From positions 41,099,572 through 41,163,571 of the forward strand of contig CP154954.1 in assembly GCA_039621445.1 (NCBI GenBank): a stretch of DNA of 64,000 nucleotides, in the 5' to 3' direction. A model generated the notes under the pieces. That model had not been told where the DNA came from. It saw only the letters and a program-made list of their open reading frames with translations, and did not search any database. Of this stretch, positions 9,198 to 53,830 are shown in pieces (the stretch's first letter is position 1; every line of letters starts with the position of its first letter). Origin of the DNA: Euglena gracilis. Its lineage: Eukaryota. A program made the position numbers and the translations under genes.

Positions 9198-10255
9198 GTG
9201 AGAGCTGCTGTCCGTCAGTTGACCATGCCCTTCACTCTCACCCACCACAAATGGTGTCTGTTCATTTGCCCGCTGTGCCGCTGCCAGCCGCTTCAGTCTT
9301 CCTATTATTTTTTCGGGGCAGCGGCTCGATGTGTGGCCACAGCTTGTCCATATTTGTCCAGATTGTGCACATGGCCCCTGCCGCTGTCTGCATGGTGTGT
9401 CATTTGTCCTCATATTCTTTGCTTCTCCTGATAACCTCTGCCCACCCATCCATCCATCCACCCTCCGCTCTGCCGCCTTGACATGATGACGCAACATAAA
9501 TTGAAGTTATTCCAGCAGTCATCAGAGAACACAAAAAACAACAACAAAACCAGCACACATAAACGCACATATATGCACGCATTCATGGAAGCACTCTCAT
9601 ATGCACGCCTTATATGCGCGCGCTGCACACACCCACGCAACCCCACATGCATGCACAAAACTCACAACACACATTTGTGCCTGAGTGTGTTTGTTTATGT
9701 TACAGCCAGGAATCCCGTGTGGGGAAATTCTTACCCAAGTTTCCTTGAACCATTTATGTGCACCACTGGCTGTTTGCTTTCTTGCGATTTCGTCATTGCA
9801 ATCCCTTTACGAACCCTCTTAAGAACTTGAGCTAGGAAAGGCAGCAACATGCACCTTTTTTTAAGGGCCAGGGTCTTACCACCCATCCAGACCGGAGGAC
9901 CCCCCCCCCTTTTCCGGGGAAGCCCACCAATTGCCGCACTCCCTCGAGGAAAAACCGACAAGGGAGGGAGGGACACACGCCTCGGGCTCCGCACTTTTCC
10001 CTTGTGAGCCGGCGGTGTTGCTTGGATTGTTTTGAGGCGCTGGGAAAGGCGTTGCTGCTCAGTGCCTTTTTCGCCGAAGTTTGTTGATTCGAAAAATTTG
10101 ACCTTCGACAACCCAGAAGACAGGAACAGAGTCTAGAACGAAGGCGAACCAAGACAAGACGTCAGCGAACCACATGGAGACAATTTTTTCCGGACTGGGA
10201 GTATTACTGGGCACTAAAGGGACCCACCCAAGACCCGAATCCCGAGGTAGTCAAG

Positions 10256-11542
10256 ATGGAATTTATCGATTGCCTACCGAGGGAGGAGCGAGAACGCGCA
10301 CGCAATTTGGTGCTACGTAATGGTGTATCATTCGATAACCTGGTTGAGCAATACGCTTCAACTAACTCAAGTTTGGTCACCAGGATTACCCTGGAGAAGA
10401 AATGGCGACAATTCGCGCCATCGGATCGCAAATGGAAATCCATTGACCTTTGGTATGCCAAATGGTTAGCACTTGCTTCCGAAGTTGATGAACTTAGCGA
10501 GAAGCAAATGCGCGAACAATTCGATGCGGTTTTGTTGCATTTCACACCATCCCTCGTGAAGGATATCCATCGCGAGGAGTTGGCAGGGCATGAGATGACT
10601 CTTGCCCAACGTTGGAATTATGTGTCAAAACAACTCAAACTCACACAAGTTTTGGGACAAATACAGTCCGCTTTCCAAACGCATCCCACCGCGGGAATCC
10701 CTGCGGGTGGGGTTAATGCGTTACATAAATCACCCATGTCACCAAGATCACCCACCACGGGACCGAAAACGCGGAATCAGCGTTCTTCGGACCAAGGCAC
10801 GGATAAACTGTGCTTTTTGTGCAACAAATCTGGTCACATGTCTCGGGAATGCCCGAATCCCGATGCGCGAAAGCGTATTGGAAGCCCAAGGGGCTCGACC
10901 TCCTCACGGGGATCGGGTTCCTCGGCGTTTTCACGTCAATCGGGAGTTTCACGTTCTTCCGAGAACCGCTTTAGCGGTAGTAGGCCCAAGTCACCATCGC
11001 GTGATGGTCGGGAAACCCGTCCCTCTCGCGGTCGGTCACCTGGACCCCCTACCCGAAAACGGCATTTCAATCGTGACTCTTCACGATCGCGTTCGCGAAG
11101 TGGATCATCCTCTTCGCGGGAGTCACCGGGGAAACCCCGGTACACCGGTCATGGTCGACGGGAAACCCGTTCACCACGACGGTTCGACGGAAGAACGGAA
11201 TACCGTTCCCCCCGTTATGCGGAATCCCGCCACAAATCCCGTTGTTCACTTTGCGGTTCCAAAGATCACCACTCATCCAAATGTCCCAGATCTCGTTCCC
11301 CCCGGCCCGGCTACGGAAATCGCGGTAAGCGCCGCGAGGACCGTGGTTACTCCTCCAACCGGCAAAAGGTCGGTTTCAAGATTTCTTGTTTGGATGAGGA
11401 CACCCCGGCTTCGGGCAGGGAGGGGGATGAGACCTCGGACGGGGAATTTAATGAGGCCCGAATGGCGGTGCGCTCATTGAGTTCCATCTATTCCACCAAA
11501 AAGTCCGTTGCCGGCTATGCGGCCGGTTCGGACTTGGAGTAG
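10256..11542 (+). CDS. gag: Gag of Gypsy element 1 (frame stays open upstream of 10256)
   Basis: Two CCHC knuckles (CFLCNKSGHMSREC, CSLCGSKDHHSSKC) and an RS-rich region. Upstream in-frame WRQFFPDWEYYW matches WQGFEVDWNLYW in element 2 Gag. Confidence 0.85.
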   Translation: MEFIDCLPREERERARNLVLRNGVSFDNLVEQYASTNSSLVTRITLEKKWRQFAPSDRKWKSIDLWYAKWLALASEVDELSEKQMREQFDAVLLHFTPSLVKDIHREELAGHEMTLAQRWNYVSKQLKLTQVLGQIQSAFQTHPTAGIPAGGVNALHKSPMSPRSPTTGPKTRNQRSSDQGTDKLCFLCNKSGHMSRECPNPDARKRIGSPRGSTSSRGSGSSAFSRQSGVSRSSENRFSGSRPKSPSRDGRETRPSRGRSPGPPTRKRHFNRDSSRSRSRSGSSSSRESPGKPRYTGHGRRETRSPRRFDGRTEYRSPRYAESRHKSRCSLCGSKDHHSSKCPRSRSPRPGYGNRGKRREDRGYSSNRQKVGFKISCLDEDTPASGREGDETSDGEFNEARMAVRSLSSIYSTKKSVAGYAAGSDLE

Positions 11543-11626
11543 GGGAGCCCGAGGCCCGAGGGCACGGACCTCTGGGCTGATGAACAGATGGAGGAAAGAC
11601 CTGATCAACCTTTCCCCTCCTGCCCT
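11540..11626 (+). promoter_or_regulatory. Putative UAG readthrough signal between gag and pol
   Basis: gag TAG is in frame with pol; 8-nt spacer, stem GAGGCCCG/CGGACCTC, loop AGGGCA complementary to TGCCCT (11621-11626). Confidence 0.5.
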
Positions 11627-14600
11627 TTCCGCCTTCACGGTCAGTACCCGGAATTATTTCGGTCCCCCACCCCCCACTCCACATTTCCGCTCGGAATGCT
11701 GAGCAAAGTAGGAAAGGGTTCATGGGAAAGCTGGCATGCAAACGTATTTCCGCCAGACCTTTCACTTTGCGTACCACCAATGGAATTACTTGTCCAAGCG
11801 GAAATCCGCATCCAAAATTTCTCCGCGAAAGTTAAAATTCTCATTGACACTGGTTGTCGCATTGCACTGCTCTTTCGGTTGGGGTTGATACCGACCCCGC
11901 TCTTGGTAAGCGCCAAGAAACCGATCAAAATTACAACCGCGGATAACACCCTCATGTGTGGTGGTGATTTGGGATGTGTCCTCGAGATACTCTTGCCCAT
12001 CATTCCGAAGCATCACTCACAACCCCCACAATTACAACATTTCACCAATATTTGGGGTTACGAGTCCGGAATTCACGGGTCTGACGTATTTTTGGGATAC
12101 CCATTTTTACGCCAGTACCGATTGGTTGTGGATTGCCAGTCCCACGGTTTGCGCACAGCACCCACCACTTCATTGACACCCAAACCACCATCACCGTTGA
12201 CATCCGCCATGATGACCACCACACCAACAACCGTTTTCCACACCCGGGGTACGGAGAAAGCCTCCCCCCTGCCCAACGACACACCAACATGCGTTCCACA
12301 TGAGGCAGGGCAAGCCAGTAGCGGTACCCCCGCCGTTTCACTGGGTTACAAGACGAAAGCCCAAAGGCCTGAAGAAATTACGGTGTCGAGTAGTCGCCCA
12401 GCTACACCACCACTCCGTTTCCCACCAGTTGTGCCGAATCCAGGCACACCTGTACAAGACTCACCGGCTAATGCCATCGACACCCACCTACACGCACACC
12501 TGTCACACCAACACACTTCCTTCCAATGTGTGCACTGCAGGAGAATTTCCACCCAATCGGATTTCGATTGTGGATGTTTAGTTCAAAATCCGACACTAAT
12601 CGCCATTCCGAAAGCGGAATCCACACCCCAGGATACACTAAGTTGTAGCCCGCAGTGCGCGGAGATACACCGAGTGCTCCAACAACGCGGATTAGCCTCG
12701 TTGTTCGGAAACGCGAAAAGCGTCATGCCTAATCACCATCACGAGTACACTTGGTACGTATTTGATGCGGAATGGGGAAATCCCCAACCTGTCCAAACTC
12801 CCTTGGTATTATCCCTTGAGGTAGTGGAAGACAACCCGCATGGTTGTGGATCCATTCATTGTGTTTCTTCACTCCAACCCGGAAATCGGGTACATGAATA
12901 CGTGGAACGCGTATGGAATGCTTTCAATTTTGGTCAATATCGCATTTTGGAACGATGGTTTTCCAACATCGCGACATTGGCTGATTCTTTTGATTTGGCA
13001 TTGGAAATCGATGCCTTTTCATCCAATGCACATGCCCGTTTGCCACGTCATTGGTCACAACACTCCAACGCATTTAATAAATTTTGGGGTGATACGGTGT
13101 TATGGATACACCCTCCCCCAAAACTTATCGAATGTGCGGTTGGGAAGATTCTGCGGGATGAAGCCCGTGGAGTTATTCTCATACCCATCATTCCGGAAGC
13201 GGAATGGTTCACCCAACTATCGTATGTATGTTTTTATTGGTGGGATTTACCCACTAATGTGCCGATTTTTGAGGATTTTTGTGGTAAAATATTACCACCC
13301 TTGCAAGAAATCATTTTTCGCGTATGTTTCTTCGATGCATTCGGAATGTCCGAATTCGCGGTGCCGAGGAAGCTCGGTAGCCCCAGGGATACCCTGGTGG
13401 TTTCCGCAGTCATCGAGAGTGCAGGTCAGCATCCTAAGTCAGCCGAATTCTGTTCGCGGATCACCCGCGAATTTCACGGTGTGCTGGAAAATCCAGTATA
13501 CGCGTGCGACATCGACCCCGCGATACGCGGTCCGTTCGGTGTTTGTAAAATCGAGCTTAAGGATGGAGCCAAACCAATGCACCGGAATTTTTTTCGTTGT
13601 TCGGGAGAACGCGAACAAGCTCTCAATGAAATGATTGAGAAGCTTATTCAGCGCAAGTGGATTGTACCCTCGAAAAGCGAGTGGACATCCCAGGCATTTG
13701 TTGTTCCTAAACCCCCAGACCCCTCAGGTCAGAAGAAATGGAGACTGGTGCTGGATTACCGGTACCTGAACTCCCAAACAAGGGATGATCCCTTCCCGCT
13801 CCCCCTGATCGAGGATTTGATCACCAAGCAATCGGAAAACCGGTTGTGGTCAATTTTCGATCTGGAGGACGGTTTACACCAAATGCACTTGCACCCTACC
13901 CTGACTCACAACCATACTCGGCATTCGTGACATCCAAGGGTGTGTACCAATGGACGGTACTCCCCATGGGTGTTAAGAATGGCCCAGCCATGTTTCAGCG
14001 CATGATACAATGGGTTCTACGCGATTTACCGTTTGCCATATCCTCGTCACACACTTCCACCATGTTTGCGCGGTATTAGCCGCCTTTCAAAAACATGTGC
14101 TTTTCGCGAAAGGCGCGAAAATGCATTTGTTTCAGATTCTCATAAAATTTTGCGGTCACATCCTCAGCAATGGACAGCGGAAAGCCGCTCCGAGTAAACT
14201 CGAAGCCATTAAGAAATGGACCCCTGAGGTAATCAAAACGATTACACACCTCAAAGGATTTTTGGGATTAGCCCAATACTACGCGATTTATATGAAGGGC
14301 TTCGCGAAAATCGCGGTACCCCTCACCAAACAGCTCAAAAACCGGGCTGTTGGCAACACCAAAGTCATTTGGGATGACCAAATGCGCGAGACCCTTGAGA
14401 AAATCAAGGTTTTGCTTTTGGAGAATGTTGTCCTCGAAATCGCGGACCCCTACAAACCATACGTCTTGGAAGTCGACAGCAGCGATTCCGCTGTTGGCGG
14501 AGTTCTTAGCCAGCATAATGCGGCAAATGAGCTCCGACCTGTGGCTTTCTTCAGCAGAAAGTTACAGGGCGACGATGGAAAAGGCCAAGTCAAATGGAGT

Positions 14601-16542
14601 ATACGCGAGAAGGAAACCTACGCAATCGTGCTTATACTCCAGAAATTCCGAAGCTGGGTAGCCAGCAGCCTCGTCCTGATCCTCGTCAAGACCGACCATG
14701 AGAGCCTCCAACACTGGTACACCGAGGATTTGAACAAGGCCATGTCATCGGTCGGAAGGCGATGCAGATGGCATGAGTTCTTGAATCAATTCAACCTTGT
14801 GGTTATTTATACCCCTGGACACACACAAAAAGTAGCGGATCCGCTCAGTCGGGCCCCTTGGTATTACCCTGGGAACCCGGATGAGGGAGACGCGACTTTT
14901 CATGGAAGTCAGGAAGCTGACAAATACGCACGTCGAAACGACGCTGCGGATAATCTTTTGGATTCTTTTCCCGTTTCACAACTATTCCTGGTCGCACCAG
15001 TGCACGGAAGGCGCCGACGTGGAAACACGTCCGGGCCCCGGCGTATTACGTGTACGGAGTCCCCTTCACCACTGTTCTTTCGCGAATGGGATTATAGTCG
15101 TGATCCGGTGTATGACACCATTGCAACCAGACTTCGTAATGGCGAAGTGCTGGACAATTACACTCTTTCACCTTTACGGTTGGTTTTTCGCAATGAATCG
15201 GGTTACAAATATTGTATTCCCCAGGACCTGGTTGATGATGTGATTTTGTGTTATCACAACCATGGTCACCCTGGGGCCCCCAAACTTCTTTCGTTGGTGG
15301 GCCGCAGGTATTGCACAACCCTGAGCGAGAAAGAGCTTTACTCACGCTGTTTGCGAATAGCGCAACGGTGTCAAATTTGTCAAGCGGTAAAACCCCGCAG
15401 AGGTACCCCCCCTGGTACGATGGACTTTTTCCCCGTACCCCCTGACATTTTTACATCCCTCTGCATGGATTTTCTGGAATTAGAACCGTGCAAAGGAACG
15501 GACGACAAAATTTACGATTACGTTTTTGTTGTCGTCTGCAGGCTGAGTGGGTACATTGTAGCCATTCCATGCCAGAAGTCAGGGTTGACTGCCCAAAGTT
15601 TGGCAACTATATTTTTGGAGAAATGCATTTGCTTAATGGGTTTACCGAATGAAATCGTGAGTGATCAAGACCATTTGATTTCTTCAAGGTTTTTTCACCA
15701 CTTTGTGCGGTTTACTCGGAATCGAGCAACATTTTTCCATTATATACCGACCCAAAGGCAATGGTAGAGCCGAGGCAGCCGTGAAATCCGTCGTGAATAT
15801 GCTTCGCCTTTCACTGGCTGACTCGCGCAGCAACTGGATATCAGTTCTACCATGGTCTTTGTTTTATATCAATACCCTACCAGGGTTGGTTTTACCTCAC
15901 TCCCCTTATAAATTAGTTTTCGGACGGGACCCTCCGGCCATAGGGGATGTCCCTTCGGAGAGACCCGCCCGAACGAGTGTCAGTTGCGAGACCTGGTTTG
16001 CGGAAGTAGAAAATCTACGTTCTGCAGTCCAGAAGCGCGTCACTGATATTCATGCAACCAAACGGAAACCGTTTTGGCAGAATTTCAAGTCACCTGTGTA
16101 TAGCCCCGGTGACCGTGTGTGGGTGCGGAATAGCCGCACTCGCATGCAGTCTTCCAATCTGGACCCCCTCTGGCTCGGCCCCTGTGAAATCCTAGAAAGA
16201 CTAGGTACCAGCGGGCGTTACAAGGTTGCATTACCGAATGGTGTTGAGGACGTTCATATGGACGACTTCAAACCATACCTGTCGCCACCGGATGGGAAAC
16301 CCATCCCGTGTTTGCACTTCAAACCCCGTTCCAGATTACCTGAGACGGACGACTTTGTAGTCGATAAAATTATCGATCACAAAATCGACAAAGGTATGCA
16401 CCTTTGGAAGGTCCGCTGGAAAGGGTATGGGCCCGAGGAGGACACTTGGGAGCCAGCAACCAGTTTTGTTGGGTATGTCCAACAGGATTGGAAGCTGTGG
16501 AACAAGAAGCATAATATTAATGTTTCCATGACAAGTTTTTGA
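11588..16542 (+). pseudogene. pol: Pol of Gypsy element 1 (protease, MTase-like domain, RT, RNase H, integrase, chromodomain), frameshifted
   Basis: LIDTGC protease; WRLVLDYRYLN and LPMGVKNGPAMFQ RT motifs with the YxDD segment deleted near 14040; RNase H VDSSDSAVGGVL/TDHESL; integrase HNHGH..CQIC, MDF, SDQD, GRAE; chromodomain VDKIIDH..WKVRWKGYGPEEDTWEP. Split over ORFs 11588, 13846, 14010, 15703. Confidence 0.92.
12932..13340 (+). other. Dam-like / DIRS-type N6-adenine MTase domain inside Gypsy Pol
   Basis: EIDAFSSNAHARLPRHWS..NAFNKFW..LWIHPPPKLI..ILIP..EWFTQL is colinear with the DIRS MT domains in this window (LFASPGNKKL..NAL..YANPPW..LIVPQW..WW). Confidence 0.75.
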
Positions 16543-16704
16543 GAACGCATGGGAAACCCATGTTGTTTTCTTTTTCTTTTTATCATTGATTCTGCTCATT
16601 CTTTCTTTCCGCAGACTTTTACCAAATAATACTCAAGCGGTTACCCTCACACACCTTACAACCAACAACCCCAACATCCCACCGTACCGACCCCGGGCTG
16701 TATC

Positions 16705-19700
16705 ATGCTGCCCGGTGGAAGGGAGCCAGGCGGAGGACCGCCTTACCACCCCACCACTCACCCTCAACCTGACCAGTATGCGTACCGATACGGTACACAG
16801 CCACCTGCACGGACTGCGGCTCAGGGAAACCCTGAAGCCAGCAGCAGTAGCAGGATGACCCAGATGCCCGCGGAAGCGCGGCCATCTCAGCCATCAGGCT
16901 CTCGTCGCCTCCCACCGTATGCGGGTGTGATGATCCACCGCACGGCGGAGACGATGAACCGGGTTATGCGTATGAGCGCAAACCCGGCACCAGACCAACT
17001 CACACAGGCATTGTGGGATGACCACTGCCGTAAAGTTTTGACCATCGCGAATACCCCTCCAGCCCTGTGGTGTATGTGCGCCCAGGCGACGATGACCGGT
17101 CTGGTGTATTACACCGACCCGGACGCGTCGGGATTCGCGGCAGACATTACCATGCGTGACCTGGGCGTGGAAGTCCCGCCACAGGTCGCACGGCAGGTAC
17201 CACCAGTTGGCACTTACACTGCACATTTTCGTGCTCACTCCCCCGGATTACCCGAGGAAGAGACAGTGGAAGCACCTGTCCGGAGTGAACACCCACGTGT
17301 GAAAGAAAGTATTTTTCGATCCCCTGAGCGCATGCCCCGGCGGGATTATCCTGCGCAGGAGCCTGTGTCTCAGTATACCGTCTCTGGGGATTACCCCCAG
17401 GAGGCGCCAATGCCACGGGATCAGTACGTATATCCACCTCAACCCCACCCAACCATACGTGACCCTATCCCACGACGTCCTGCGGAGGGGAATCCTCCCC
17501 CGACGTCTGACTCTGCCCGAAGCGCTCGTCCGCGGGAAGCCGCGGCAGCGCCTCGTGCGGCACCAGTTCCCCCGGTACGGGATGAACCCGTTAACCCGTG
17601 GACTGGCCGGCCGTTTGAGACTGAGGAGGAGCGTCAACAGTATGAATATGCTGTGACGATCCAACGACAAATCGCACGTCGCCCCCCTGTTTCCGCTGGC
17701 CAGGGATACCCTGCCCGGGCGGAAATGACACGGGACGAGCGCCAGCAGTATGATGCCGCTGTGTCGGCGCTCACAGGAATCCCAGCTTCATCACGATCAA
17801 GTCAACCAGCGCGACAGCAGGACGTTGCTGTGGCGGAAGCGCCTCCAGCACGGCCCACAGGCTCTGCCGCCGGCAAACGTGACCGCGGCCCGGAAAATCT
17901 GACGCCGCAGCCACAGCGCCGCTCGCCGAGGTCGGAAAATCCGCCCGCGGCGATGCACGTCGACGCTGAGGAGGAAGCTCCGCCAGCGCCAGGCGTGTCG
18001 GCAGAACGGGCACGTCGGGAAACCCGACCATCCCCAGTCGCACCGGTTTACTCGAAGCGTGGTGACGCTGAGCAGGAATTTGCTCGAACACCAAGCACGG
18101 AATCCGTGACTTACCCCTTGTTTACACCAGAAGACCCAGACTACTGGGAATACTTTGACCCATACCGGGCGACCTTTGAATGGCTGTCTAACACAAAGGG
18201 TAAGGGGAAGGGTAAAGGCAAGGGTAAGGGAAAGGAAAAGGCCAGGAGAAAGGTGGGAAAGCCCCACCTGGCAAAGGCGGAAAAGCCGCCTGGCCAGCTC
18301 CAGGCAAAGGCGGAAAATCTGCCGGACCCCCAGCAGGCAAGGGCGGGAAAGCCGCCGAACCTTCGAAAACGAAGGATTATGACGTTGCCTCAGTGTTCAA
18401 GTACCTGGAGGAGATCTGGCCGAAAATCGACGAGGATCTCCAAAAGTTCACAAGGGCAGGCAACGTCATCCACCGACCACCGGATGCGGTGCTCGAAGTG
18501 GTGCAGAATCGTATGAACGATCACTGCAAACGTTTTTTCTACAGTGCCGAACTTCATGCGTTCGAGGGATACCCTCATTCGAATGAAGTTGTCCTGGACC
18601 AGATGCCTGGTTTCTGGGAGCTGTGGTTCTGGTTTGGATACCCCTGCCAGAATTTCGGCATTTTTACCGACCGAAACGGTCTAACGTACATCGATTGCCT
18701 GAATACCTGTGAAGACGGCGAAACGTTCGTCGCACAGTTGAAGGAAATCTTCAACCACATGTTTTCAGTCAGCGTACTGGGAATCCAGTGGAAGTATTAC
18801 CCCCTGCCGGAGAAACTCCAGGCGCAGGCTGCGGTAATGTTCACGAACAACCTCCAAGTCTTCTTGGACAGCATGTATGGCATGCTGTTCAAGGTACTGG
18901 ACGTGGACCTCGCGTACCCCCAGCGGTACAAACTGGAATGCCAGTTTTGCAAGGAAGTCCATATCGTTGACTTCTGGGGTTTCGGAGAACGCGGAAAACC
19001 GCCTCCGTCTGCCGAGAATGCCGGCAGACAGCCGACCAGGAGATTCCTCCTGCATCAGTGCCGGAATCCCCAGATCGGAACGCAAGACCGAAAGGTGCTG
19101 AAACAGCACCGGCAGAAAATATTTCTGCTGCAGCAGTACTGGCACAGGGCGTGGATTACCTACGTCCTGGAGGTCTACATATATTTCCTGGAATATATGA
19201 CCACCGATGTGGAAATCCACAGACAGTGGTTGCCTCGAGGATATATGGAGGTGAACGCCATACCCAATGACCCAGACCAGCGCATGATGAACCTGCGACC
19301 AGACTGGGAAGAGGCCGAAATCGGTCTCTAGGAACACCTGGAGACCCAATTCGGGAATATCCTGATATGGGAGGATTTTCAGATTTTTTTCGCGGCGCAC
19401 GAAGGGGAAGTCCCTCGTTACGCGCTGCCACTGCCTGCATTCCTGGAAGAAACCGGAGAGTTTGGCGTGACTGACCATTGTCGACGACAGTGGGAAGACC
19501 TTTGCTTGATCGACGATGATCAACCACAGCCTCCACCCGAAAGCTGGGTGAGAGCGACATGGCCACCCCCATACCCCAATTCTGACAGGAGTGAAAGTAT
19601 TAGTTTTTTCCGCCTGTCGAACGCACAAGGGTGCTACAGGAGGGGGAAAGACCCGCGTTCTGCAGCACAGCTACACGCAGCCGAATCCTCTCCGGAAGCG

Positions 19701-22137: not shown

Positions 22138-22194
22138 TGCCGAAACGGCATTACCAGGCTCATGTAAGGTAAGTGCCTTCATGGGTCCTGGACA

Positions 22195-40857: not shown

Positions 40858-40915
40858 GGAGGCCAGGGGCAGTTTGAGAAGGGGGGGGCTGCCCATGGCC
40901 GTGTCTCTCCCCCCT
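40855..40915 (+). promoter_or_regulatory. Putative MuLV-like UAG readthrough pseudoknot
   Basis: TAG + 8-nt GGAGGCCA spacer + stem 1 GGGCAG/CTGCCC + stem 2 AGGGGGG/CCCCCCT. Confidence 0.6.
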
Positions 40916-41129
40916 GTGAGGAAAATTGTGTAAATATTTCTGATTCAAAAGACTGGGCTGTACAGGATTTTATGGCTGATTCAGGGGTGGGGAAAAACAT
41001 TCTATGGATCAGCCCGCCAGATTTTTGATTCGGATCCGATACTCCTGGAGGGAAGGGAAATGTTCAAGGGTTCCCATTTTGCATACAAACCTGCCACAAC
41101 CCAACCCCCTACCATCAGCCCAGCGACCT

Positions 41130-41730
41130 CAGGCATTAGATTTATTCGCTGGCACAGGGTCGGTGGGGAGGCGGTTGGCAGAACGGGGGTATGAAGTTTT
41201 GTCAATTGAAAATGCTCCTTGGACGGACTTCCACCCCACACAGACATTTTGACCTGGGACTACAGGCGATACCCGGTTGGATTTTTTGAGGTTATTGCCG
41301 CAAGTCCCCCCTGTAATATTTATTCCACGGCTTATAACTCCAGGCCAAGGGATTTCTCCCAGGCGGATGCCCTGGTGGAGAAAGCCCTGGAAATTATAAA
41401 TTATTTTCAGCCAAAGTTGTGGTGGTTGGAGAACCCCCGCACTGGTCCTTGCGAAATAGGGAGGTGGTGAAAAACTTGCCCTATATCGAAATTGATTATT
41501 GTCAGTTTTCAGATTGGGGTTATAAAAAACCCACACGTTTCTGGTGCTGCCCAGCCATTTCACAACTACGGTCGGTGTTGTGTGATGGCGAATCGTGTCC
41601 TAACCTGGTGATGGGGGACAATGGGCAGTTCCGGCACCGTGAATTGTTGCGGGGCAGAAAAATGAAGTTCACCCCCGACAAAAAGGAAGAATACCCGCCC
41701 TGGTGATTGATTATCTCCTAAGTGCTGGGG
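41130..41730 (+). pseudogene. C5-cytosine DNA methyltransferase domain at the N-terminus of Pol (about 3 frameshifts)
   Basis: Motif I ALDLFAGTGS, DI, motif IV ASPPC, motif VI WLENP, then DYCQF..YKKPTRFW and a C-terminal GRIPALVIDYLL that is in frame with the protease ORF. Confidence 0.88.
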
Positions 41731-44700: not shown

Positions 44701-46124
44701 TCACCAATTTTTCAGGCTACTCAGGATTCGAAGGTGCCGTGGCCTGAAAATATCACGGTTTTTGGTGACAAAATGTTTTTTGAGGAGAGGCTTTGTGTGC
44801 CCAAATCTCTCCAAGAAAAACTCATTCGGGATCACCACTCATACCAAGGGCATGTGGGATTCCCAAGGCTATGGGAATGCATGTCCCTTAGGTATGATTG
44901 GGCTGATTCCTCACTCGCTCGAGAATTCGCTAAAGGAGTCATGGGCCTTTGTGGGACTTGCCAAGCGTGCCGAAGGCCGGCGAGTCTTAAGGGTTTAGTG
45001 GAATCTACACCCATACCCCCAGCCGTAATGTATTCGGTGACCCTTGACATGTTTAGCATGCCTCTCGTGGAGTGGGAAGGGAATTCTTATGGCTCCATGC
45101 TTGTGTGTGTGGATCGTCACTCCGGTTGGATAGTGGCGATCCCCCACCTAGCAAAAGGATTTACAGGAGCCAAGGCAGCCAAGCAAATGCTGTCGCTTGC
45201 TTGGCGAACTTTTGGCGTCCCTTCCATTATTACTTCCGATCTAGGCTCACACTTTGTCGCCGGTTGGTGGCAGACAATGTGTGCCTTGATGGGAATTAGG
45301 CAAGCCTACTCCCGGGCCTACCATCACCAGGCGAATGGTAGGGCGGAGAGGGCTGGCCAACAAATAATGGAACGGCTCAAAAAAATTCAGGTTGAGGACA
45401 AGTTGAATTGGGTTGAAGCCCTCCCCCAAGCACTAGATCGTATCCATGATACGCCGGGGGAGAGTGGCCTAAGCCCATTTCAAAGCTTGTTCGATCGACA
45501 CCGTTCTTTGGGTGGTTTACCTTATGAACCGTTAAGGGATTGTGAAGATGCCAGGGCACTTTTCTCTCGGCAAAGAGAAATTGATTTGGTAGTAGCTGGC
45601 AAAATGAATAATTTGCATGCCAAGCAATGTGCTCGGGCCAACCGTGGTTTGGACGGTTGGGAGCCATTGGAGGTAGGGAATCTGGTGTGGTACGTGAGAC
45701 CCCCCGATAGTGGCACGAAATTGGATTCCCGTTGGTTGGGCCCTTGCAAGGTTACCGCAAGGGAGGGAATTCACTCCTACCTAATTGAGGTTAAACCGGG
45801 CTATATTATGAATGCCCATCGGAAGGTTTGAAGCTGTATGTGGAGGATCCCATATCTGATAAGCCTATCCCCCTATTTTTCCACCGGCGTACGGTACCTG
45901 AGGCGGAAGGTGCCCCAGATATCTGGTTAGTGGATAAAATCCTAAACCACAAGTTCGTTAAGGGAAAAATGTTTTTCTTAACGAAGTGGCAAGGGTTTAA
46001 GGAGGCGAATTGGGAACCGGTGGAACATTTTTTCCAGGAGTACAATAACGACGTAATAGCGTATTGCCTGGGAAAAGGGTTGCCGTTAGACGTCTCTAAG
46101 GATTTAAAGGCAAGGGCAACCTGA
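41703..46124 (+). pseudogene. pol: Pol of Gypsy element 2 (PR, RT, RNase H, integrase, chromodomain), disrupted
   Basis: LVDTGA; ILDLQKAFHQ; broken (Y)IDD at ~43182; DASQYAVG, TDHKAL, ADLLSR; HHSYQGH..CGTC, LDMF, SDLG, GRAE; chromodomain LVDKILNH..TKWQGF..WEP. Confidence 0.92.
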
Positions 46125-46160
46125 AAAAAGGGGGGAAGGAGAGGTGAAAAAGGGCCTGGA

Positions 46161-47374
46161 GTGGTTGCCTGGGGGGGGGTCCCATTCTATGCCCCTTCAC
46201 AGATGCAGGTGGACGTGCCAACGGAAAACCCCACGGAGGAGGAGACGGCCCCCTCGGAGGAGGAGGAGGTCACCGCAGAACTGGAAAAGGCACTTCAGAA
46301 AAATGATGGGGGCAGTGCTTCTTCGTCATTTTTTGAGTTTTTATTTCTAGAACTCATCCATCAACCCTGTCCGGGTTTGGATGGGGTTCAAGTAACCGAA
46401 GGATTTTCGGATGCTTGGGACGCTATTTTTCGATATGCACCTGAACCCCCGAGAACGGAAGTTCAGGTGGTTATTGAAAGTTTATATCCGGACATCCGAA
46501 CGGCTAGGGAGAAACTAGCCGGGGATCCGTATTTTATTGTTTTGATGGGTGGAGAAGGACAATTACAATTTCATCCAACCCCGGATGGGGGCGGGATGAA
46601 TTTGCCAACATTAAAAGGCAAAGCCCGCATCGTCCAGCGAATTGTCGATGTGGATGGTTTTGCTTATGTGGCCATAAATGGATGGGTGCCGGTTTGGTTC
46701 CCATCCCGTGTACGCGATTGGATTGAAGTGATGGGGGAAAGTTCTCGGTGGCAAAACCACTGGAGGTGGGTCCGAGGATTTTACCTCGAGCAAGCACAAA
46801 GGTCCCATGTGCTTGTTCATTTCCCAAATACAGACATCGTGTGGGTCCACGTTGCATGATGGAAGGAACTCCGAGGCGAACGTTACCTCTTCCTGTGGTC
46901 GGAGGAGGCCGATTTCCTCAACGAGTACATCTGTTAATCTCACTCCTGGTTTGGAATGAGAGAAGGATAGGGAAGGGCCACGGTCTGCTCATCGGTACAG
47001 CCGAGCAGAACCCTTTTGTAAATAAAGGACGGTTGGGGGAGGATTTCCCCCTTGCCACCTGCTGGTTTTGTGGCGAGCTGGGCCATCGTAAGATGGATTG
47101 CCCCATACGCCCAGTCAAGGGCAAGGCCAATCGGGGAATCCAGGTGGAAACGGGGAAGGAAATTGTGCGGCAGTACCACCACACACACCCACCTCCCAAG
47201 CGAAGAGCGGAAGATGCACCGACATCAGCAAAGAAGCCCAAAAGCAACCTCGAACCCAAGCCCCCAGCTCAGCCCGCCTCCAAGTCCACAGCCCCTCCGG
47301 CCCTCCGCCGTCCCTGGGCTCCCAAGCCCATACCTTACAAGGGGATCGGCAAGGGCACGGAGGAGTGGCAGTGA
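46161..47374 (+). CDS. Extra ORF(s) downstream of integrase in Gypsy element 2, with a CCHC knuckle
   Basis: ORFs 46161-46859 and 46748-47374; CWFCGELGHRKMDC. Confidence 0.5.
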
Positions 47375-47929
47375 AAACAAAACCCCCCAAGCTGCAATCA
47401 TTGCTGCCACACACATCAACCACCGTACCCCCCCCCCAACCGTACCCATACCCCCCACCGCAGCAGTACACCTGGTGGTATTAATATCTTTGCATGGCAT
47501 TGGATATATGGGGAATGGGATGTATATACAACTGCCTGCCTCCTGCCTCCTCGTACTTACTCTGGACGGAACCTAGAGCCGGGACTCTGAGTTGGACGAG
47601 TTGAAGACGGATTCTCAATTATTATTCGAAGTCTGGAATATCAAGCTTCCACGAGCGGTGGACAGGCCGAAGGTGTAACCTGACCACACTCGAACGACAA
47701 TGTGCCCCGTTGCGCCCACAGTCATGAAAGAGGAATATGTGATTTTTCATTTCTCCCCTCTCACGGGTCGGTGACACTCGTGGTGGGGGGTTCCTTTCTC
47801 CAATCGGTTTGATTGGCTATTTTTATCGTACCCCCACCTTTGGGCAAGTGAGGCCCGAAACCACGGTCGGCTTGATCGGGGGGGGCTATGTTATTATTTC
47901 TCAAAAAATGAAGTGATTTACCTTTTCCA

Positions 47930-48152
47930 ACCTCCCGGGGGGGGCAAGGCAAGCCCTCCCATTGCCCGGGGGGGGCGGTTTGACCAAAGCTTTCCCCTCT
48001 GGGGGGGGGGGGGGCAAGCCCATCTCTCGCCCGGGGGGGGGGGCGGTTTGACCAAAGCTTTCCCCTCGGGGGGGGGGGGGGGGCAAGTCAAGTCCACCTC
48101 TCGCCGGGGGGGGGGGGCAAGTCAAGCCCACCTCTCGCCGGAGGGGGGGGGC
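47930..48152. repeat. G/C-run tandem repeats in the 3' noncoding region of Gypsy element 2
   Basis: Units such as (G)nCGGTTTGACCAAAGCTTTCCCCTC and (G)nCAAG recur. Confidence 0.7.
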
Positions 48153-48501
48153 TGATTTTCATCTATCACCGAAAGGATTTTTGGTGATAATGGACCCTCC
48201 ATTCCCTTCACGGTTGGGAATACCGTGGGGGGGGGGCTGATTTTTATCCATTCAAGAAAGGATTTTTTGAGTGGTGTTGGGCCCCCATTTCCTTTCACGG
48301 TGGTGAGAACCGTGAAGGGGGGGGCTCGGTGTGGTGGAACGGGATCTTTGGGTTATAGATTCCTCCTCACCGTTACGCCACCACATATGCACGTTGCCGA
48401 ACAATGTTGTCGCAATTGAGTTGCAAAAATTCAAAGTGTATTTCATTCCCATCCCAAGGAAAGCGAGAAGGAGCGGGAGTGAAACCCCCGACTTTCGTCG
48501 C

Positions 48502-48512
48502 AAGGAGGGGAG
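48502..48512 (+). promoter_or_regulatory. Polypurine tract
   Basis: AAGGAGGGGAG immediately before the TG of the 3' LTR. Confidence 0.8.
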
Positions 48513-49607
48513 TGACGACCTTTTGAGGTCGACCGCCGGGCGGCGAAGTTTTTCCCTTTTAGAAGGCCTTTTGACGGGCGGTTTAGCTCTAATTTTAAGG
48601 CTTTCTAAAGATTTCCATTAAAATTACCTCTCCTAGGGCGCCCATGGTTTGGTTGTGCAAGGAGAGAGATTGAGTGATGCTAGGTATTCCCAAATGGTCA
48701 TTTTGGGTTTATTTAGGACATTTTAAGTGTTTTTTTTTGCATTTTCCCTTTGGTTTTAAGGGAAAATTTTGGATTTAGTGAGAGCGCTTGCAAGCGCTTG
48801 GAACAGAATTTTAAGAGATTGGCGCCTGAGTTCCTGGAGTTCTTGCAGGGGTTTGCAAAGCTCAATAATGATGGAATTCAGCATAATTTATCAAAATCAA
48901 GGGGGGAAACCTTGATTTTGACTTGGGTTGGTTGATTTTGATGCAATGGGCTGGGATTTGGGATTTGAGAGCGCTTAGTAATCAGCGCACTCAATCCTAA
49001 ATTTTACTGCCCATCAGGGGCATCAAAATCATTTCCTTTTCACAGGGTTTTCCTCTTTACCTTTTACACCATTGTACTTGTTGTGGCAAATACATCCAAT
49101 TACAATCAAGTATTGAGTTTGGAATTTCAATTGCAAATGGAAGATCAACAAAACAATCAATCATTTGAAGAAGGAGAGGTTTGTCTTCCCCCCACCTCAT
49201 CTGTGGGAAAGGGGGCAGGGGGGTGGGACTCTTCAACTCAGGCAACCACTGGCCAAATTTCACCCCAAAACCCCCTTTTTGGCCCAGAAACTGTGAGAAA
49301 TGACACCCAGGGGGGGTGTTGGCTCTCACTGGTCAACTGAGCAGGGAGGGGTTGAAACCCCAAAGGCACCCCCCTTGGAGATCCCAGTAACACCCCCCTC
49401 AGGGGTCGGGGAGGGTCCACTGGGAAGTTCATCCTTGGAAATGATGGCCCAGTTTCGGTCACAGGGAGGGCCAGAATGGGAAAAAATTTCCGACACAAGT
49501 CGGCTCGAGGAGCCAAAAAACGATCCTACGCCGGAAACTGGCCCGGGGCGGGGGTTTCCGCTTCACCCCAGTGCTGCCGGGGGACATGGCAGCACGGGTG
49601 TGAAACG
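48513..49607 (+). repeat. 3' LTR of Gypsy element 2
   Basis: Direct repeat of 36054-37150; the terminal CA is altered. Confidence 0.93.
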
Positions 49608-52500
49608 TAAAGTGCCCTTCAAAACCCCCCAAGAAATCATGACTGCCCAGAGAATTCTGAGGGAATACGAATGTGCAGGGGCAACCAGGCAACACCCCCC
49701 AGAGGAGGCAAAACAATTTGTCCCTTACTTCATCATTTCAAAAAAAACAAGGTGAGAAGACAAAATAAAGGTTAATTTCAGATTGCCGACAGTTAAATCT
49801 CCACTTCACCCCCCAGAAGTTCAGACTGAAACACACGGGAAATATCTTCCCACTTTTACGAAAGGGTTGTTTTTGTGGAAAAATCGATCTGAATGATGCT
49901 TATTTCCATCTACAGCTTCACAGCAGCTTAGAAAATTCTGTTTTCATGCAAGTGGGGGGTACACTTGGCAGTTTCAAGCTGCATGCTTTGCCATCAGCAG
50001 CCTGCAACAAAAATTTATGACTCTAATGAGAGTCTTGGAAAGGAAATGCAGAAAGGAGGGAAAGGTAGTTTTCATCTACCTGGACGACTTTTTGCTGTTA
50101 GCCCCCAGCAAAAAGACAGCAGCCCAACATTTTGGCAGAAATGGAAAAGGATCTTTAACTGGCAGGTTTCAGATTAAGCCAACCAAAAACCTGTCTGGAA
50201 CCCACACAGGAAATAAAGCACTTGGGCCAGTGGTTCAATTTGAAACAAGGCCAACTGGAAATTACTCATAAAAAAACTACGTTCCTTAAGAAACGAGCTA
50301 GGCAAAGTGCTCACAGCACAAAAAATGAGCTGCAGAAAACTGAGTTATATTGTGGTGCAAGTAAGTAGCTATTTAGTGTCAATGCCTTTGCTCAAAATTC
50401 TGACAGATAAGCTTTGCAAAATGGTGGATCTCCACACAAAGTGAGGTTGTGACCATACCCTAACCATTCCCCAGGTGGTCAAGGATCAAATTGTGGAATT
50501 AAAAGCATTTTTACAGCCAGGGGTTAGCAGGGCATTTCAATACCAGGCCTCTCAAGAACTGTTCTCAGACAGCAGCACCTGGCAGTGTGGGGGGCTGGAC
50601 AAAAACTCAGACCAAAAGGTGCAAGATTTTTGGAGGGACCTGCATATCCTTCATATCAACCAAAAAGAGTTGACGTCGGCAGTGGAAGCAGTAAAATCTT
50701 TGGCGAGGCCAAAACAAACAATTGTCCTTCACGTGAACAGCCAGGTAGCTGTAAGTTATTTAACAAAATGGGAGGCAGAAAGACCTACCTAAATTCCATC
50801 CTGAAAACTCTTCTGTACCATTGTCAAGAAAAGTAAATCAATTTGCAGGTGGTTTGGGTCCCCACACAGGAGCAATTGGCAGACTCTCTGACCAGAGAGC
50901 AAAAAGACCCAGGGGATTATACCCTAAACCTAAACATTTTTCACCAGGTTCTGCGATTTTTCAAAAGAAACATAACCCCAGAGGTTGACATGTTCTGCAC
51001 ACCCAGCAACTAAAAACTCCCCAAGTTTGTTTGTCGATACCCCCACCAAGGGGCATTGCTGGTGGATGCCTTGAAGGCAGATTTGAGGGGCCTCCCCCAG
51101 TCTATGCAAACCCTCCCTGGAGCATCATTCCCCAGTGGGTTCATAGGTTAACTTTAAACCAAGACCTGATTTGTCTGTTGATCGTACCCCAGTGGGTTTC
51201 GACATCATGGTGGCGCCAATTAATGTCCATCAGGCAGCCAGGCAGCAAAGTTTTGTTGGTGCCCCCCCCCCCCAATGGGGTCTGTTCACCACCTGCTGGG
51301 GGGAGGAGATGCCCCCCCCCAATGTGGAATTTGGCCTGCTTGATTGTGTCAGGCAAATATTACAATCCCAGGAAGTTTCGATGTCCAGTACCAACACTTT
51401 CATAAAAAAATCTGAGAAATGTCAATAGATCTGACTCAGCCTTCAGGACATTGCTGGGCCAATTGTTGCACAAAAGGTGCCCCTGCAGGACTGCACAGTC
51501 CACAAGATGGCCTACGCCATCCTTGATCTTGGTGTCCACAGCCTCAATACTGCCAGAAATGTATATACAGCAGCCTTGTTACTCCCGGGGTTTGGTTCAT
51601 TGAGGTTTCCCCCTCTTTTGTCTCCATTGAAACGAAAATGGAATTCGAATGTCTGCAAGTATGCCCGTTTTCGGACCCCGCTGACCTTCTAGAAAACATC
51701 ATCAGAAATTCAAAAAACCCCTCTCAGAACTGTCTGTGAAAGAGCTCAGAAACAGACGCATCATTTGTTGGAGGCTGTTGGCCCTCCACAGGTGGGTTGA
51801 CCTAGCCGGAACCCAGCAGAAAATCAGTTTCGTGGGAGAAAGAAATTTCATTTTGTTGCAAAGGCAAGGGCGGCAGTACCCAAGGCGGGAGGAGGTTTTG
51901 AGTTTGCCACACAGCCCCCTCATAAGCCCCTGGCATTTATTGAAAGAGTATGTGGAAATGAAAGCCCACGTGGTTGGTCGCAAAAATAATTTGTTATGGT
52001 CTTTGGATGGTAGAAGGCCTTTGACTTCAGAAAGAATGAGTTCTCTTACCAAAGAAATTCTTCAAGCGGGGGGGGGTGGACACCACCCACTGGAAACCCC
52101 ACAGCACCAGAGGGGCTGGTGTTTTATGGTGGAAAAATGCTGATTTGTAAGTGGAAGAAGTCCAGCAGCTGGGCCAATGGAAATCGGACTCCCACGACAC
52201 AGGAAGGGGGAGGAAGGGACCAAGAGGGCGAAGCACAAGAAGATGGTGAGGTCCTGCTTTCCTTGCCGGCTGTTCTGTTCTGGTGTGTTTCTGCGTGCCC
52301 GGGGGGTGCTTCTAACTGCGCCTTTGTTGCCGTAGTTGGCGATGATGAGGCCTCCTCCGACATCTTGGCGAAGCTGAACCGTCGTTGCCCCCCCCCCCCC
52401 CCCCCTTTCCCATGGTCGCTTGGTTGCCCCCCCCCCCCGATGGGAATGGCTGTCTCTTTCTGGATGTTTTTCTATTTCTGCTGATTGTTGGGGTGTGGGG

Positions 52501-52793
52501 GTTGGGTTAGGGTTAGGGTTAGGGTTAGGGTTAGGGTTAGGGTTGGGGTTGGGGTTAGTGTTAGGGTTAGGGTTAGGGTTAGGGTTAGGGTTAGGGTTAG
52601 GGTTAGGGTTAGGGTTAGGGTTAGGGTTAGGGTACCCTAACCCTAACCCTAACCCTAACCCTAACCCTAACCCTAACCCTAACCCTAACCCTAACCCTAA
52701 ACCTAACCCTAACCCTAACCCTAACCCTAACCCTAACCCTAACCCTAACCCTAACCCTAACCCTAGCCCTAACCCTAACCCTAACCCTAACCC
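52501..52793. repeat. Head-to-head interstitial telomere array (TTAGGG)n-(CCCTAA)n
   Basis: About 22 TTAGGG units then about 26 CCCTAA units with a palindromic centre GGGT|ACCC at 52633/52634. Confidence 0.97.
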
Positions 52794-53830
52794 TTCCTCT
52801 GTCGTGGGAGTCCGAGGCCATTCGGGCTCCGCACTGCGAGATGGTGAGGTACTGTGCACCCCCCTTTGGGCCATAATTTTTTGAATTTTTGAAACTACAC
52901 CAAGTCGCAAATAATGAGCTTGGAAGGCCCCAAAAGTTTTCCACTGACCCAGCTGCTGGACTTCTTCCACTTGCAAATCAGCATTTTTCCACCATAAAAC
53001 ACCAGCCCCTCTGGTGCTGTGGGGTTTCCAGTGGGTGGTGTCCACCCCCCCCTCTTACAGAATTTCTCTGGTAAGGGAATTCACTATTTCTGATGTCAAA
53101 GGTCTTTTACTATTCAAAGACCATAACAAATTATGTTTGTGCCCAACCATGTGGGCTGTCATTTCCACATTCTCTTTCAATAAATGCCAGGGGCTTATGA
53201 GGGGTGTGTGTGGCAAATTCAAAACTTCCTCCCATCTTGGGAATTGCCACCCTTTCCTTTGCAATAAAATCAAAACTTTTTCTCCCACGAAACTGATTTT
53301 CCGCTGTTTCCTGGCTAAATCAACCCCCCTGTGGAGGGCCAAAAGCCTCCAACAGATGATGAGTCTGTTTCTGAGCTCTTTCACCGACAGGTCTGAGAGG
53401 GGTTTGGATTTCATTGATGATGTCTTCTAAGAAATAAGTGGGGTCCAAGGAATGGGCATACTTGCAAACATTGGAATTCCATTTCCTTTTCAATGGAGAC
53501 AAAAGAGGGGAAAACCTCAATGAACCAAACCCCGGGAGTAATTAAACTGCTGCATATGCATTTCGTGCAGTGTTGAGGCTCGGGGCAGCGAGATCAAGTA
53601 TGGCATCGGCCATCTTGTGACTGTGCAGTCCTGCAGGGGCACCCCTTTGTGCAACAATTGGCCCAACAATGTCCTGAAGGCTGAGTCATATCTCTTAACA
53701 TTTCCCAGATTTTTTATGTAAGTGTCGATACTGGACATCGAAACTTCCTGGGATTGCAATATTTGCCTGACACAATCAAGCAGGCCAAATTCCACCTTGG
53801 GGGGGGGGCATCTCCTCCCCCCCGCAGTTC
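52794..53830 (-). mobile_element. DIRS 3' part (tyrosine recombinase) abutting the telomere array
   Basis: LLALHRGVDL..HSTRGAG..GQW..FQAHYLRL (YR R/HxxR/Y residues); inverted homolog of 51300-52200. Confidence 0.85.

Follow-up and report, generated by a model that had tools for sequence, protein, structure and literature searches.

Does the presence of three kinds of methyltransferase-bearing retroelement within 44 kb of the Euglena gracilis genome point to a common system, or is it the outcome of insertion and decay? The question was raised by a first-pass annotation of a 64,000-nucleotide stretch of contig CP154954.1 (positions 41,099,572 to 41,163,571 of the forward strand; this whole stretch is called the window, and coordinates refer to its first letter). 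The annotation had described a Ty3/Gypsy element with an adenine-type methyltransferase (MTase), another with a C5 cytosine MTase and several DIRS-like elements with an MTase, and had proposed them as the best candidate for an undescribed system there. Pfam scans, tblastn and self-comparison located all three close to where they had been placed. There are three element kinds, namely Gypsy#1, Gypsy#2 and two DIRS-like families, and they are new copies of a phenomenon already described in protists. We consider it highly probable that the region consists of nested, dead retrotransposon copies stacked by successive insertion, and is not a working system.

The window is repeat-rich eukaryotic DNA of about 50% G+C. 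Its anatomy was derived from comparison of the window with itself, Pfam scans of its individual open reading frames (ORFs) and tblastn maps against the intact relatives P0008, P0002, P0016 and P0167 (P-numbers, e.g. P0002-P0016, denote database relative proteins; L003-L082 denote loci on IMG/VR viral contigs). Contigs from four sequencing runs (X1, X15, X17 and X20) were compared with positions 34500-52500. Run X20, a leaf-litter metatranscriptome, has 9% of the sampled words, and its contigs are 90-97% identical to the window. Rfam and tRNA scans of the 64-kb window gave no matches.

Three kinds of retroelement in one nest

The element with the C5 MTase, Gypsy#2, consists of the following parts (LTR, long terminal repeat):

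36054-49606, plus strand: Gypsy#2, second Ty3/Gypsy chromovirus (LTR pair, Pfam, colinearity with P0008)
36054-37149, plus strand: 5' LTR; left target-site copy GAAAA at 36049-36053
39250-40854, plus strand: gag-like ORF with a CCHC-like knuckle (weak zf-CCHC matches)
41130-41700, plus strand: small C5 cytosine-methyltransferase in three frames (motifs DLFAGTGS, ASPPC, ENP, DYCQF..YKKPTR)
41853-46121, plus strand: protease, reverse transcriptase (RT), RNase H, integrase and chromodomain (about 45927-46025); Pfam, tblastn; frameshifts and in-frame stops at 43636 and 44170
48513-49606, plus strand: 3' LTR; right target-site copy GTAAA at 49607-49611

In the self-comparison the two LTRs were direct repeats, 97.7% identical over 1098 bp. 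A single base separates the 5' LTR from the trinucleotide TGG, and ahead of the 3' LTR lies a purine-rich tract. Pfam recognized RT_RNaseH (E=6e-25), rve (E=3.6e-10) and, just below its cut-off of 25.1 bits, Chromo (E=4.6e-5, 23.7 bits). The order of domains in pol is small ("mini") C5-DNMT, protease, RT, RNase H, integrase and chromodomain, and by tblastn it is colinear with P0008. A Dam domain was not found by the same comparison: residues 354-540 of P0008 (187 residues) are without counterpart in Gypsy#2, which has about 52 residues instead, and the relative P0002 likewise lacks a counterpart of these residues. A candidate remnant of the N-terminal helix of the DAM domain (EEWEIADRFCHLANTL, set against the P0008 stretch before DAM) was rejected, the similarity being too weak.

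The DIRS-like sequences amount to at least seven fragments of two families, about 27-31% identical at the protein level. Copies A0, A, B and C belong to family 1, and D, E and F to family 2:

23823-25060, plus strand: family 1, A0, C-terminal Dam-like end and 3' part of the element (self-comparison, tblastn)
26372-27970, plus strand: family 1, A, RT, RNase H and the first 22 Dam-like residues; many stops (self-comparison, tblastn)
28466-30555, minus strand: family 1, B, RT, RNase H and Dam-like domain (YLFAS ... ANPQ); 13 stops in a 632-column alignment to P0167
32594-34371, plus strand: family 1, C, RNase H and Dam-like domain (CNPPP), frameshifted (self-comparison, tblastn)
34578-36053, plus strand: family 2, left part of D, terminal repeat (34608-34709) and start of pol; interrupted by Gypsy#2
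49609-52343, plus strand: family 2, right part of D, RT, RNase H, Dam-like domain (YANPPW, 50989-51402), tyrosine recombinase and terminal repeat (52242-52343)
52938-53830, minus strand: family 2, E, 5'-truncated, last 35 Dam-like residues and tyrosine recombinase (ALHRGVDL ... HSTRGAG ... QAHY)
57202-59639, minus strand: family 2, F, start of pol and RT only, no methyltransferase part; uninterrupted reference for the insertion site

The "several" DIRS copies with an MTase of the first-pass annotation can thus be counted: a Dam-like segment is detectable in six of the fragments (A0, A, B, C, D and E) and near complete only in B, C and D. The pols of both families comprise RT and RNase H with a Dam-like domain after them, and a tyrosine recombinase appears to come next. 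The recombinase is identified by motif only, in D and E (R in ALHRGVDL, HSTRGAG and QAHY); ORF-wise scans of the DIRS-like pieces gave no Pfam match to Phage_integrase. Copy D carries repeats of about 100 bp at both ends, 87% identical, and joints of element end to element start occur in the contigs. Intact relatives of the DIRS-like pieces are P0167 (RT, RNase H and a Dam-like domain with NPPW), P0168 and P0169; the last, a relative of the Dam-like domain of copy D, is EG_transcript_22914 in EukProt. Between the tail-to-tail copies D and E lies a hexanucleotide-type microsatellite (52487-52794), which translates as (GL)n/(NP)n.

Four observations bear on the nesting of Gypsy#2. Copy F, read from 59639 to 57202 on the minus strand, is colinear with 34578-36053 and then with 49609-50623. 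The insert is flanked by GAAAA and GTAAA, and the uninterrupted copy F has TAAAA at this place, which amounts to a 5-bp target duplication. The alignment of the relative P0167 ends at residue 155 on the left of the insert and begins at residue 150 on its right. Finally, contigs of run X1 link 36044-36047 straight to 49609, i.e. they represent DIRS copies without the insert. Together with the LTR pair, these observations show that Gypsy#2 was inserted into the pol gene of a DIRS-like element; the first-pass annotation had already noted the nesting.

The same annotation had seen in the nesting a route for domain swapping. Some features of the locus would suit a recent transfer of an MTase domain between the DIRS-like element and Gypsy: Gypsy#2 lies in the same orientation as copy D and just upstream of its RT, and an open frame (49297-49752) runs from the 3' LTR of Gypsy#2 into the DIRS pol. 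A recent preprint, moreover, in its accessible part, proposes transfers from DIRS to LTR elements and considers insertions nested in one another in Euglena (Fernandez-Moreno et al. 2026, bioRxiv 10.64898/2026.05.21.726589). The comparison of the domains speaks against such a transfer. Gypsy#2 is entirely without a Dam domain. With BLASTP, the Dam-like domain of Gypsy#1 gave no significant match to either local DIRS family (copies B and D, E 3.8-5.7; for P0016, the relative of Gypsy#1, E 0.09-0.49), and it was 23% identical to that of P0008. The two DIRS families were 27% identical to each other in this domain, and the other pairs did not exceed 29%. The position of the domain also differs: in Gypsy#1 it follows the protease, in P0008 it precedes the protease, and the DIRS pols have it downstream of RNase H. 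Since identity among the four Dam lineages (Gypsy#1, the EpiLTR relative P0008 and the two DIRS families) does not exceed 29%, the nesting brought about no domain swap here, and a recent transfer mediated by it is very improbable. A gene caller could take ORF 49297-49752 for a chimeric LTR/DIRS protein.

The remaining element, Gypsy#1, lies at lower coordinates:

10088-16539, plus strand: Gypsy#1, Ty3/Gypsy chromovirus (Pfam zf-CCHC, RT_RNaseH, Integrase_H2C2, rve, Chromo)
10088-11539, plus strand: gag-like ORF with a CCHC zinc knuckle (zf-CCHC E=1.5e-6)
11543-13927, plus strand: first part of pol, with protease (about 11831-12130), Cys-rich linker, Dam-like domain and start of RT (tblastn to P0008 and P0016; relaxed-threshold Pfam Dam, RVT_1)
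12803-13462, plus strand: putative Dam-like adenine-methyltransferase domain (motifs EIDAFSS, LWIHPPP; relatives; structure model and its nearest folds)
13897-16539, plus strand: remainder of RT, RNase H, integrase and chromodomain (about 16354-16461) (Pfam; tblastn to P0016)

Its pol is ordered protease, Dam-like domain, RT, RNase H, integrase and chromodomain (Chromo E=1e-10), and the part from RNase H to integrase is 82% identical to P0016 by tblastn. No C5 MTase was detected in it: ORFs of at least 115 aa had no corresponding Pfam match, and by tblastn the DNMT part of P0008 had no counterpart. Alignment with P0016 revealed frameshifts near 13897, 14040 and 15680 and the loss of the counterpart of residues 659-678, which hold the YIDD box of the RT. 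The Gypsy#1 copy is truncated or rearranged. Its gag and pol share one frame with a single TAG (11540-11542) between them, a stop that is either read through or has arisen by mutation in this copy.

Every copy in the region is broken by stops, frameshifts or deletions, so that nothing at the locus can act. The breaks of Gypsy#2 that could be checked are private to the window copy. All contigs shown from the four runs differ from the window in the letter at the stops of 43636 and 44170, and at the first frameshift of the DNMT (41233) most X1 contigs and all X15, X17 and X20 contigs have an extra base. One X17 contig spans 41152-41727 with three gaps and is three bases longer than the window; it fits a single open frame running from the DNMT into the protease, the positions of the gaps not being visible. 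The private nature of these breaks and the existence of intact relatives indicate that, at the level of the families, the MTase domains are neither left to neutral decay nor restricted to single decayed copies: they are conserved, and relatives elsewhere carry intact motifs.

Could the three kinds of element still form a cooperating, undescribed system at the level of the locus? That they lie within 44 kb and that two of them are physically nested would agree with this idea. It is at odds with the broken state of all copies, and no common regulatory or coding feature ties the three types together, nor does anything connect them functionally at this locus. As few sequences in the runs of the organism are as highly repeated as these families, co-location is expected, and co-occurrence in one 44-kb stretch is not beyond chance. 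The element classes of the proposed system are, furthermore, already published (see below). We regard this possibility as close to excluded, and the region as a nest of dead copies.

Some observations concern the surroundings and internal parts of the two Gypsy elements. In Gypsy#2, past the chromodomain, the summed word depth of 46520-47721 in run X1 is 10-40 times below that of the rest of the element; this segment holds an ORF with a CCHC knuckle (46727-47371) and may be subfamily-specific or foreign. At the start of a single X17 contig, adaptor letters and ATTTTTTTTC stand directly before the G at 49045, within the 3' LTR. We take ATTTTTTTTC, seen in this one contig only, to resemble the 3' end of the euglenid spliced leader. 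In the window a pyrimidine tract and AG precede 49045 (the equivalent place of the 5' LTR is about 36586), so that the arrangement resembles a spliced-leader junction inside the LTR. With the EukProt name of P0169 and an element set like the one given for E. gracilis in the preprint, it points to a euglenid origin. Directly downstream of the chromodomain of Gypsy#1, five long ORFs lie on the same (plus) strand (16630-22134; 628, 367, 271, 330 and 300 aa), partly Pro/Ala-rich and without a Pfam family. The last of them (21235-22134) has a Cys-rich start and gave a weak RING-like lead in the ESM Atlas (0.87), and ORF 18228-19328 gave no usable ESM Atlas match. A long AG/AT-rich microsatellite tract (22260-22670) follows the ORF block. 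Apart from these elements, a 233-bp direct repeat of 94% identity occurs at 2641-2871 and 7380-7610 among high-GC ORFs.

The small C5 methyltransferase and its viral relatives

The C5 MTase of Gypsy#2 has to be read in three successive frames, which contribute DLFAGTGS, then ASPPC...ENP and then DYCQF..YKKPTR. In the alignment with its relatives the C5 motifs I (FxGxG), IV (PC, with the catalytic Cys), VI (ENV-like) and VIII are present in this order. The 86-aa middle piece matched PF00145 with E=4.3e-4 (20.2 bits, cut-off 22), and among its relatives P0008 (28.2 bits), P0007 (26.1 bits) and the viral L004 (35.2 bits) scored above the cut-off. When the piece was used as the query, 14 of 49 candidates had E<=1e-3. 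P0002, which reads DNMT, protease, RT and RNase H, is 90% identical to the window piece in the PPC-ENP part (64/71), compared with 76-91% between Gypsy#2 and P0002 in protease, RT and RNase H. A metagenome scan for P0002 DNA gave two RT/RNase H loci, 64-66% identical and lacking a DNMT part. P0008 is a 1911-aa pol protein in which PF00145 is accompanied by Dam (44.2 bits), RT, RNase H, integrase and Chromo; its DNMT is 57% identical over the 86-aa piece.

The assignment to the C5 class agrees with the structural evidence. At E<=1 a profile of the C5 family matched 29 PDB sequences; the matches were weak (E 0.004-0.19), but every one was to a C5 methyltransferase. An AlphaFold2 (AF2) model of the 196-aa relative P0005 (pLDDT 88.2) matched M.HhaI, M.HaeIII, DNMT1 and DNMT3, with a best E of 2.9e-8, and only C5 methyltransferases were among the matches listed. 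PPC and ENP are conserved in 10/10 aligned database relatives, except that the glutamate of ENP is replaced by Leu in P0015. Judged from this conservation and from the identity to P0002, the C5 domain appears to be constrained within the family though decayed in the window. In another relative, P0011, a retroviral-type protease precedes the mini-DNMT, the reverse of the order in P0008 and Gypsy#2, which indicates that the module has moved within pol.

The closest stand-alone relatives of the window C5 domain are about 196-243 aa long. An alignment of six of them was used as the query for a scan of viral contigs, and the best 80 of 163 relatives were kept (IMG/VR L003-L082). The contig names of three viral relatives mark metagenome-assembled genomes (MAGs) of giant viruses. 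The prokaryote collection yielded 28 loci, mostly weak or on MAG contigs. Five viral contigs were checked with Pfam: a D5-like primase-helicase gene is present in L003, L004 and L006, a second DNA methyltransferase gene of another class (D12 N6A, N6_N4) in L004 and L009, and the G+C content is 28-32% in four (L003, L004, L009, L072) and 49% in L006. The viral stand-alone enzymes share with the window family the length, the motifs ELFSGTGS, ASPPC, ENP and DYCxY..K.TR, the Cys-rich insert and the C-terminal R.RIP..L, and are 37-61% identical to the window piece. Unlike the retroelement-borne window copy, they are free genes, mostly in AT-rich contigs. On the evidence of these shared features the DNMT of Gypsy#2 can be assigned to a "mini" family of about 200 aa that is common in giant-virus-like contigs.

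A tree of the mini-DNMTs was built from 102 rows (80 viral, 8 MAG, 9 metagenome and 5 labelled retroelement-borne), with 88 of 108 loci kept after short or stop-containing matches had been dropped. The five labelled rows formed one branch with an SH-aLRT value of 96 in this tree, which has no outgroup, and the direction of transfer cannot be read from it for this reason. In three of these (P0002, P0008 and P0011) the same protein also contains retroelement domains; P0003 is fragmentary (164 aa), and P0007 is without a transposon domain, its label being an assumption. In the preprint, as far as its accessible part goes, the DNMTs of EpiLTRs (LTR elements with both DAM and DNMT, see below) are placed as sister to DNMT4 (bioRxiv 10.64898/2026.05.21.726589).

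The Dam-like domains and their possible activity

With a relaxed threshold, Pfam Dam (PF05869, cut-off 28.1 bits) matched residues 479-557 of the Gypsy#1 ORF 11543-13927 (E=0.0045, 17.1 bits), and DIRS copy D reached 13.2 bits. Relatives support the weak match in Gypsy#1. An exhaustive HMMER search with its 220-aa domain yielded 309 proteins at E<=1e-3; of these, 87 reached E<=1e-10 and 9 reached E<=1e-30. Among 26 relatives scanned, 23 matched PF05869 at E<=1e-3 and 12 did so above the cut-off; in 8 of the scanned relatives Dam lies upstream of RVT_1 within one protein, as in Gypsy#1. Two of the proteins matched in this search, P0120 and P0149, combine Dam with the Copia-type RVT_2, and P0120 also has rve; the host elements of DAM named in the accessible part of the preprint are Ty3/Gypsy-like and DIRS (bioRxiv 10.64898/2026.05.21.726589).

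The AF2 model of the Gypsy#1 domain had a pLDDT of 83.4. VIA-align gave Z values of 10.5 for PCIF1, 8.7 for METTL5, 8.6 for KsgA, 8.3 for M.TaqI and 8.2 each for T4 Dam and EcoDam, a modest margin over a noise level of about Z 7-8; Foldseek, less clear than VIA-align, gave TM-scores of 0.36-0.50. By the model, the domain has a class I methyltransferase fold that is nearest, with a modest margin, to the N6-adenine methyltransferases. The sole match of the Dam-like profile among PDB sequences, an aspartate racemase at E=1.3, was discarded.

Chance similarity in decayed sequence, which the low Pfam scores of the window copies might suggest, has a probability close to nil for both MTase classes. 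It is contradicted by relatives that number in the hundreds at significant scores, by the occurrence of these domains in polyproteins that are intact, by the motif-by-motif alignment with relatives and by the structure matches of the modelled domains.

The catalytic motif of the Dam-like domain varies. The triplet is part of LWIHPPP in Gypsy#1 and LWLHPPL in P0016; both have His at the usual position of Asn and no aromatic residue after the triplet, and they are 61% identical over the 220-aa domain region. In an alignment of Dam-like relatives (151 of 152 sequences aligned) NPP occurs in at least 73 rows, HPP in at least 22 and CPP in at least 10; 10 rows have no residue at the triplet, and the rarest patterns, which are not itemised, make up 19 rows. 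NPPW is kept in the relatives of DIRS family 2, and the local copies read YANPPW (D), ANPQ (B) and CNPPP (C). Between Gypsy#1 and P0016 the Dam core is 75% identical (107/143, gap-free), compared with 40% (112/281) and 47% (26/55) in the flanking linkers and 91% at the start of RT. This pattern suggests that the Dam-like core, too, is constrained within the family though decayed in the window.

For live members of these families we infer enzymatic activity, a benefit to the element and the following mechanism from the literature. Translated within the pol polyprotein and then released from it, the methyltransferase would have the element's own DNA as its target, either as produced by reverse transcription or just after integration. 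The C5 enzyme would write 5-methylcytosine, by which the element could blend into a genome with CG methylation as the default. The Dam-like enzyme would write N6-methyladenine (6mA) directly or recruit it through the host AMT1; as 6mA would mark permissive chromatin, new copies could stay in such chromatin. Integration would be steered by the chromodomain.

Several points weigh against our reading of the locus as a nest of copies from MTase-bearing families, and are gathered here. The Dam-like and DNMT pieces of the window itself score below the curated Pfam cut-offs. Their assignment to the families depends on transitive homology and on modelled relatives, and the DNMT model is one of P0005 and not of the split gene in the window. 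No LTR pair was found for Gypsy#1, in that the self-comparison showed no direct repeat flanking 10088-16539. The summed word depth of the element families in the runs of the organism is 1e5-1e6, but word depths are not copy numbers. The RNA label of runs X15 and X17 is the guess of a tool, and contig cover in RNA-labelled runs is no evidence of transcription. With His-Pro-Pro in place of Asn-Pro-Pro and no aromatic residue following, the Gypsy#1 lineage may be non-catalytic, and catalysis by the HPP-type Dam-like domain appears doubtful. Finally, eukaryotic DAMs expressed in E. coli caused no rise in 6mA, according to the accessible part of the preprint (bioRxiv 10.64898/2026.05.21.726589).

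The last two points, together with the frequency of HPP and CPP among the aligned relatives, would fit the view that the MTase-like domains of these lineages are non-catalytic modules retained for a different purpose, for instance the binding of nucleic acids or cofactors or the architecture of the polyprotein. The Dam core, conserved better than its linkers, would suit this view as well. Retention of NPPW in the relatives of DIRS family 2 argues against it, as does the presence of the catalytic PPC and ENP of the C5 domain both in its relatives (see above) and in the window piece. His, moreover, is still able to form hydrogen bonds, and de novo methylation of CG is described for retrotransposon DNMTs from other lineages (PMC5890265, accessible part). 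We consider non-catalytic modules unlikely, though not by a wide measure, as an explanation for these lineages.

Relation to described elements

Goodwin and Poulter reportedly described DIRS1/PAT-like retrotransposons with a Dam-like methyltransferase domain. The DIRS-like elements of the window share with these the RT, RNase H and Dam-like domain of pol and the use of a tyrosine recombinase in place of a DDE integrase, and their ends appear to carry repeats other than plain LTRs; they differ in being represented by decayed copies only. DNMTs inside retrotransposons were described in dinoflagellates and charophytes by de Mendoza et al. 2018 (PMC5890265), whose accessible part also covers de novo CG methylation by retrotransposon DNMTs, cites Dam-like domains in DIRS as prior knowledge and contains the idea of cDNA self-methylation, which originates from there. 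SymbioLINE-DNMT, SymbioDIRS-Dnmt3 and the charophyte DNMT3 elements of that study resemble Gypsy#2 in encoding a C5 MTase inside the coding region of a retrotransposon. They are LINE, DIRS and charophyte LTR elements with a Dnmt3 or an orphan DNMT lineage, whereas Gypsy#2 is a Ty3/Gypsy chromovirus with a DNMT of about 200 aa that has a short Cys-rich insert.

DAM-DIRS, several independent DAM-LTR lineages and EpiLTRs, the last from Cymbomonas and Euglena gracilis, are described in the accessible part of the preprint (Fernandez-Moreno et al. 2026, bioRxiv 10.64898/2026.05.21.726589). There an EpiLTR combines DAM, DNMT and chromodomain in one LTR element, and Euglena gracilis is highlighted for clades in which DIRS and LTR elements are mixed and for insertions that may be nested. 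A literature search on Euglena gracilis DIRS retrotransposons and genome assembly gave, apart from this preprint, one unrelated paper, and the accessible part of PMC12344493 makes no mention of a Euglena retrotransposon DNMT. With these element classes already in print (DNMT capture in PMC5890265; DAM-LTR, DAM-DIRS and EpiLTRs in the preprint), the claim of an undescribed system fails. Repeated MTase capture, which the first-pass annotation had also proposed, is upheld: methyltransferase domains were acquired more than once by different retroelement classes.

The preprint and the window both have Ty3/Gypsy chromoviruses bearing Dam-like and/or C5 domains, alongside DAM-DIRS. The full EpiLTR set (DNMT, DAM, protease, RT, RNase H, integrase and chromodomain) is found in the relative P0008, but neither Gypsy copy of the window is an EpiLTR. 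Gypsy#2, with DNMT and chromodomain and without DAM, is a DNMT-only relative of the EpiLTRs, and a DAM-based screen would not find elements of this type. Gypsy#1 has the Dam-like domain and the chromodomain, lacks DNMT, and carries DAM after the protease and not before it as in P0008. Its lineage has His-Pro-Pro, in contrast to the Asn-Pro-Pro triplet reported for almost all DAMs sampled in the preprint. The DAM screen of the preprint used a threshold of E 1e-5, as given in its accessible part (bioRxiv 10.64898/2026.05.21.726589); since the Gypsy#1 lineage matches Pfam Dam with E 8e-4 to 5e-3, weaker than this threshold, it may have been missed.

Taken together, the results allow a tentative reading, which we hold to be possible though less likely than not. 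The C5 module of the chromoviruses and EpiLTRs would be a viral mini-DNMT of about 200 aa, exchanged with giant-virus-like or polinton-like viruses and not descended from a cellular DNMT, and modules would be gained and lost freely. Gypsy#2 would then be an EpiLTR minus DAM, and the lineage of Gypsy#1 would keep a His-Pro-Pro Dam-like domain that is missed by screens with Pfam thresholds and whose role is possibly changed or non-catalytic.

For the genome scan from which the window was taken, the main outcome is that the finding is real but largely explained, and that current understanding is not overturned. The locus provides, at the level of coordinates, an example of what the preprint, in its accessible part, could only suspect in Euglena (bioRxiv 10.64898/2026.05.21.726589). 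It demonstrates that mixed DIRS/LTR gene models can stem from true nested insertions and not from chimeric elements, the nesting here being a clean insertion without sign of domain exchange. For the epigenetics of transposons it offers three leads: the DNMT-only relative of the EpiLTRs, the link between retroelement DNMTs and viral mini-DNMTs, and the conserved His-Pro-Pro variant of the Dam-like domain.

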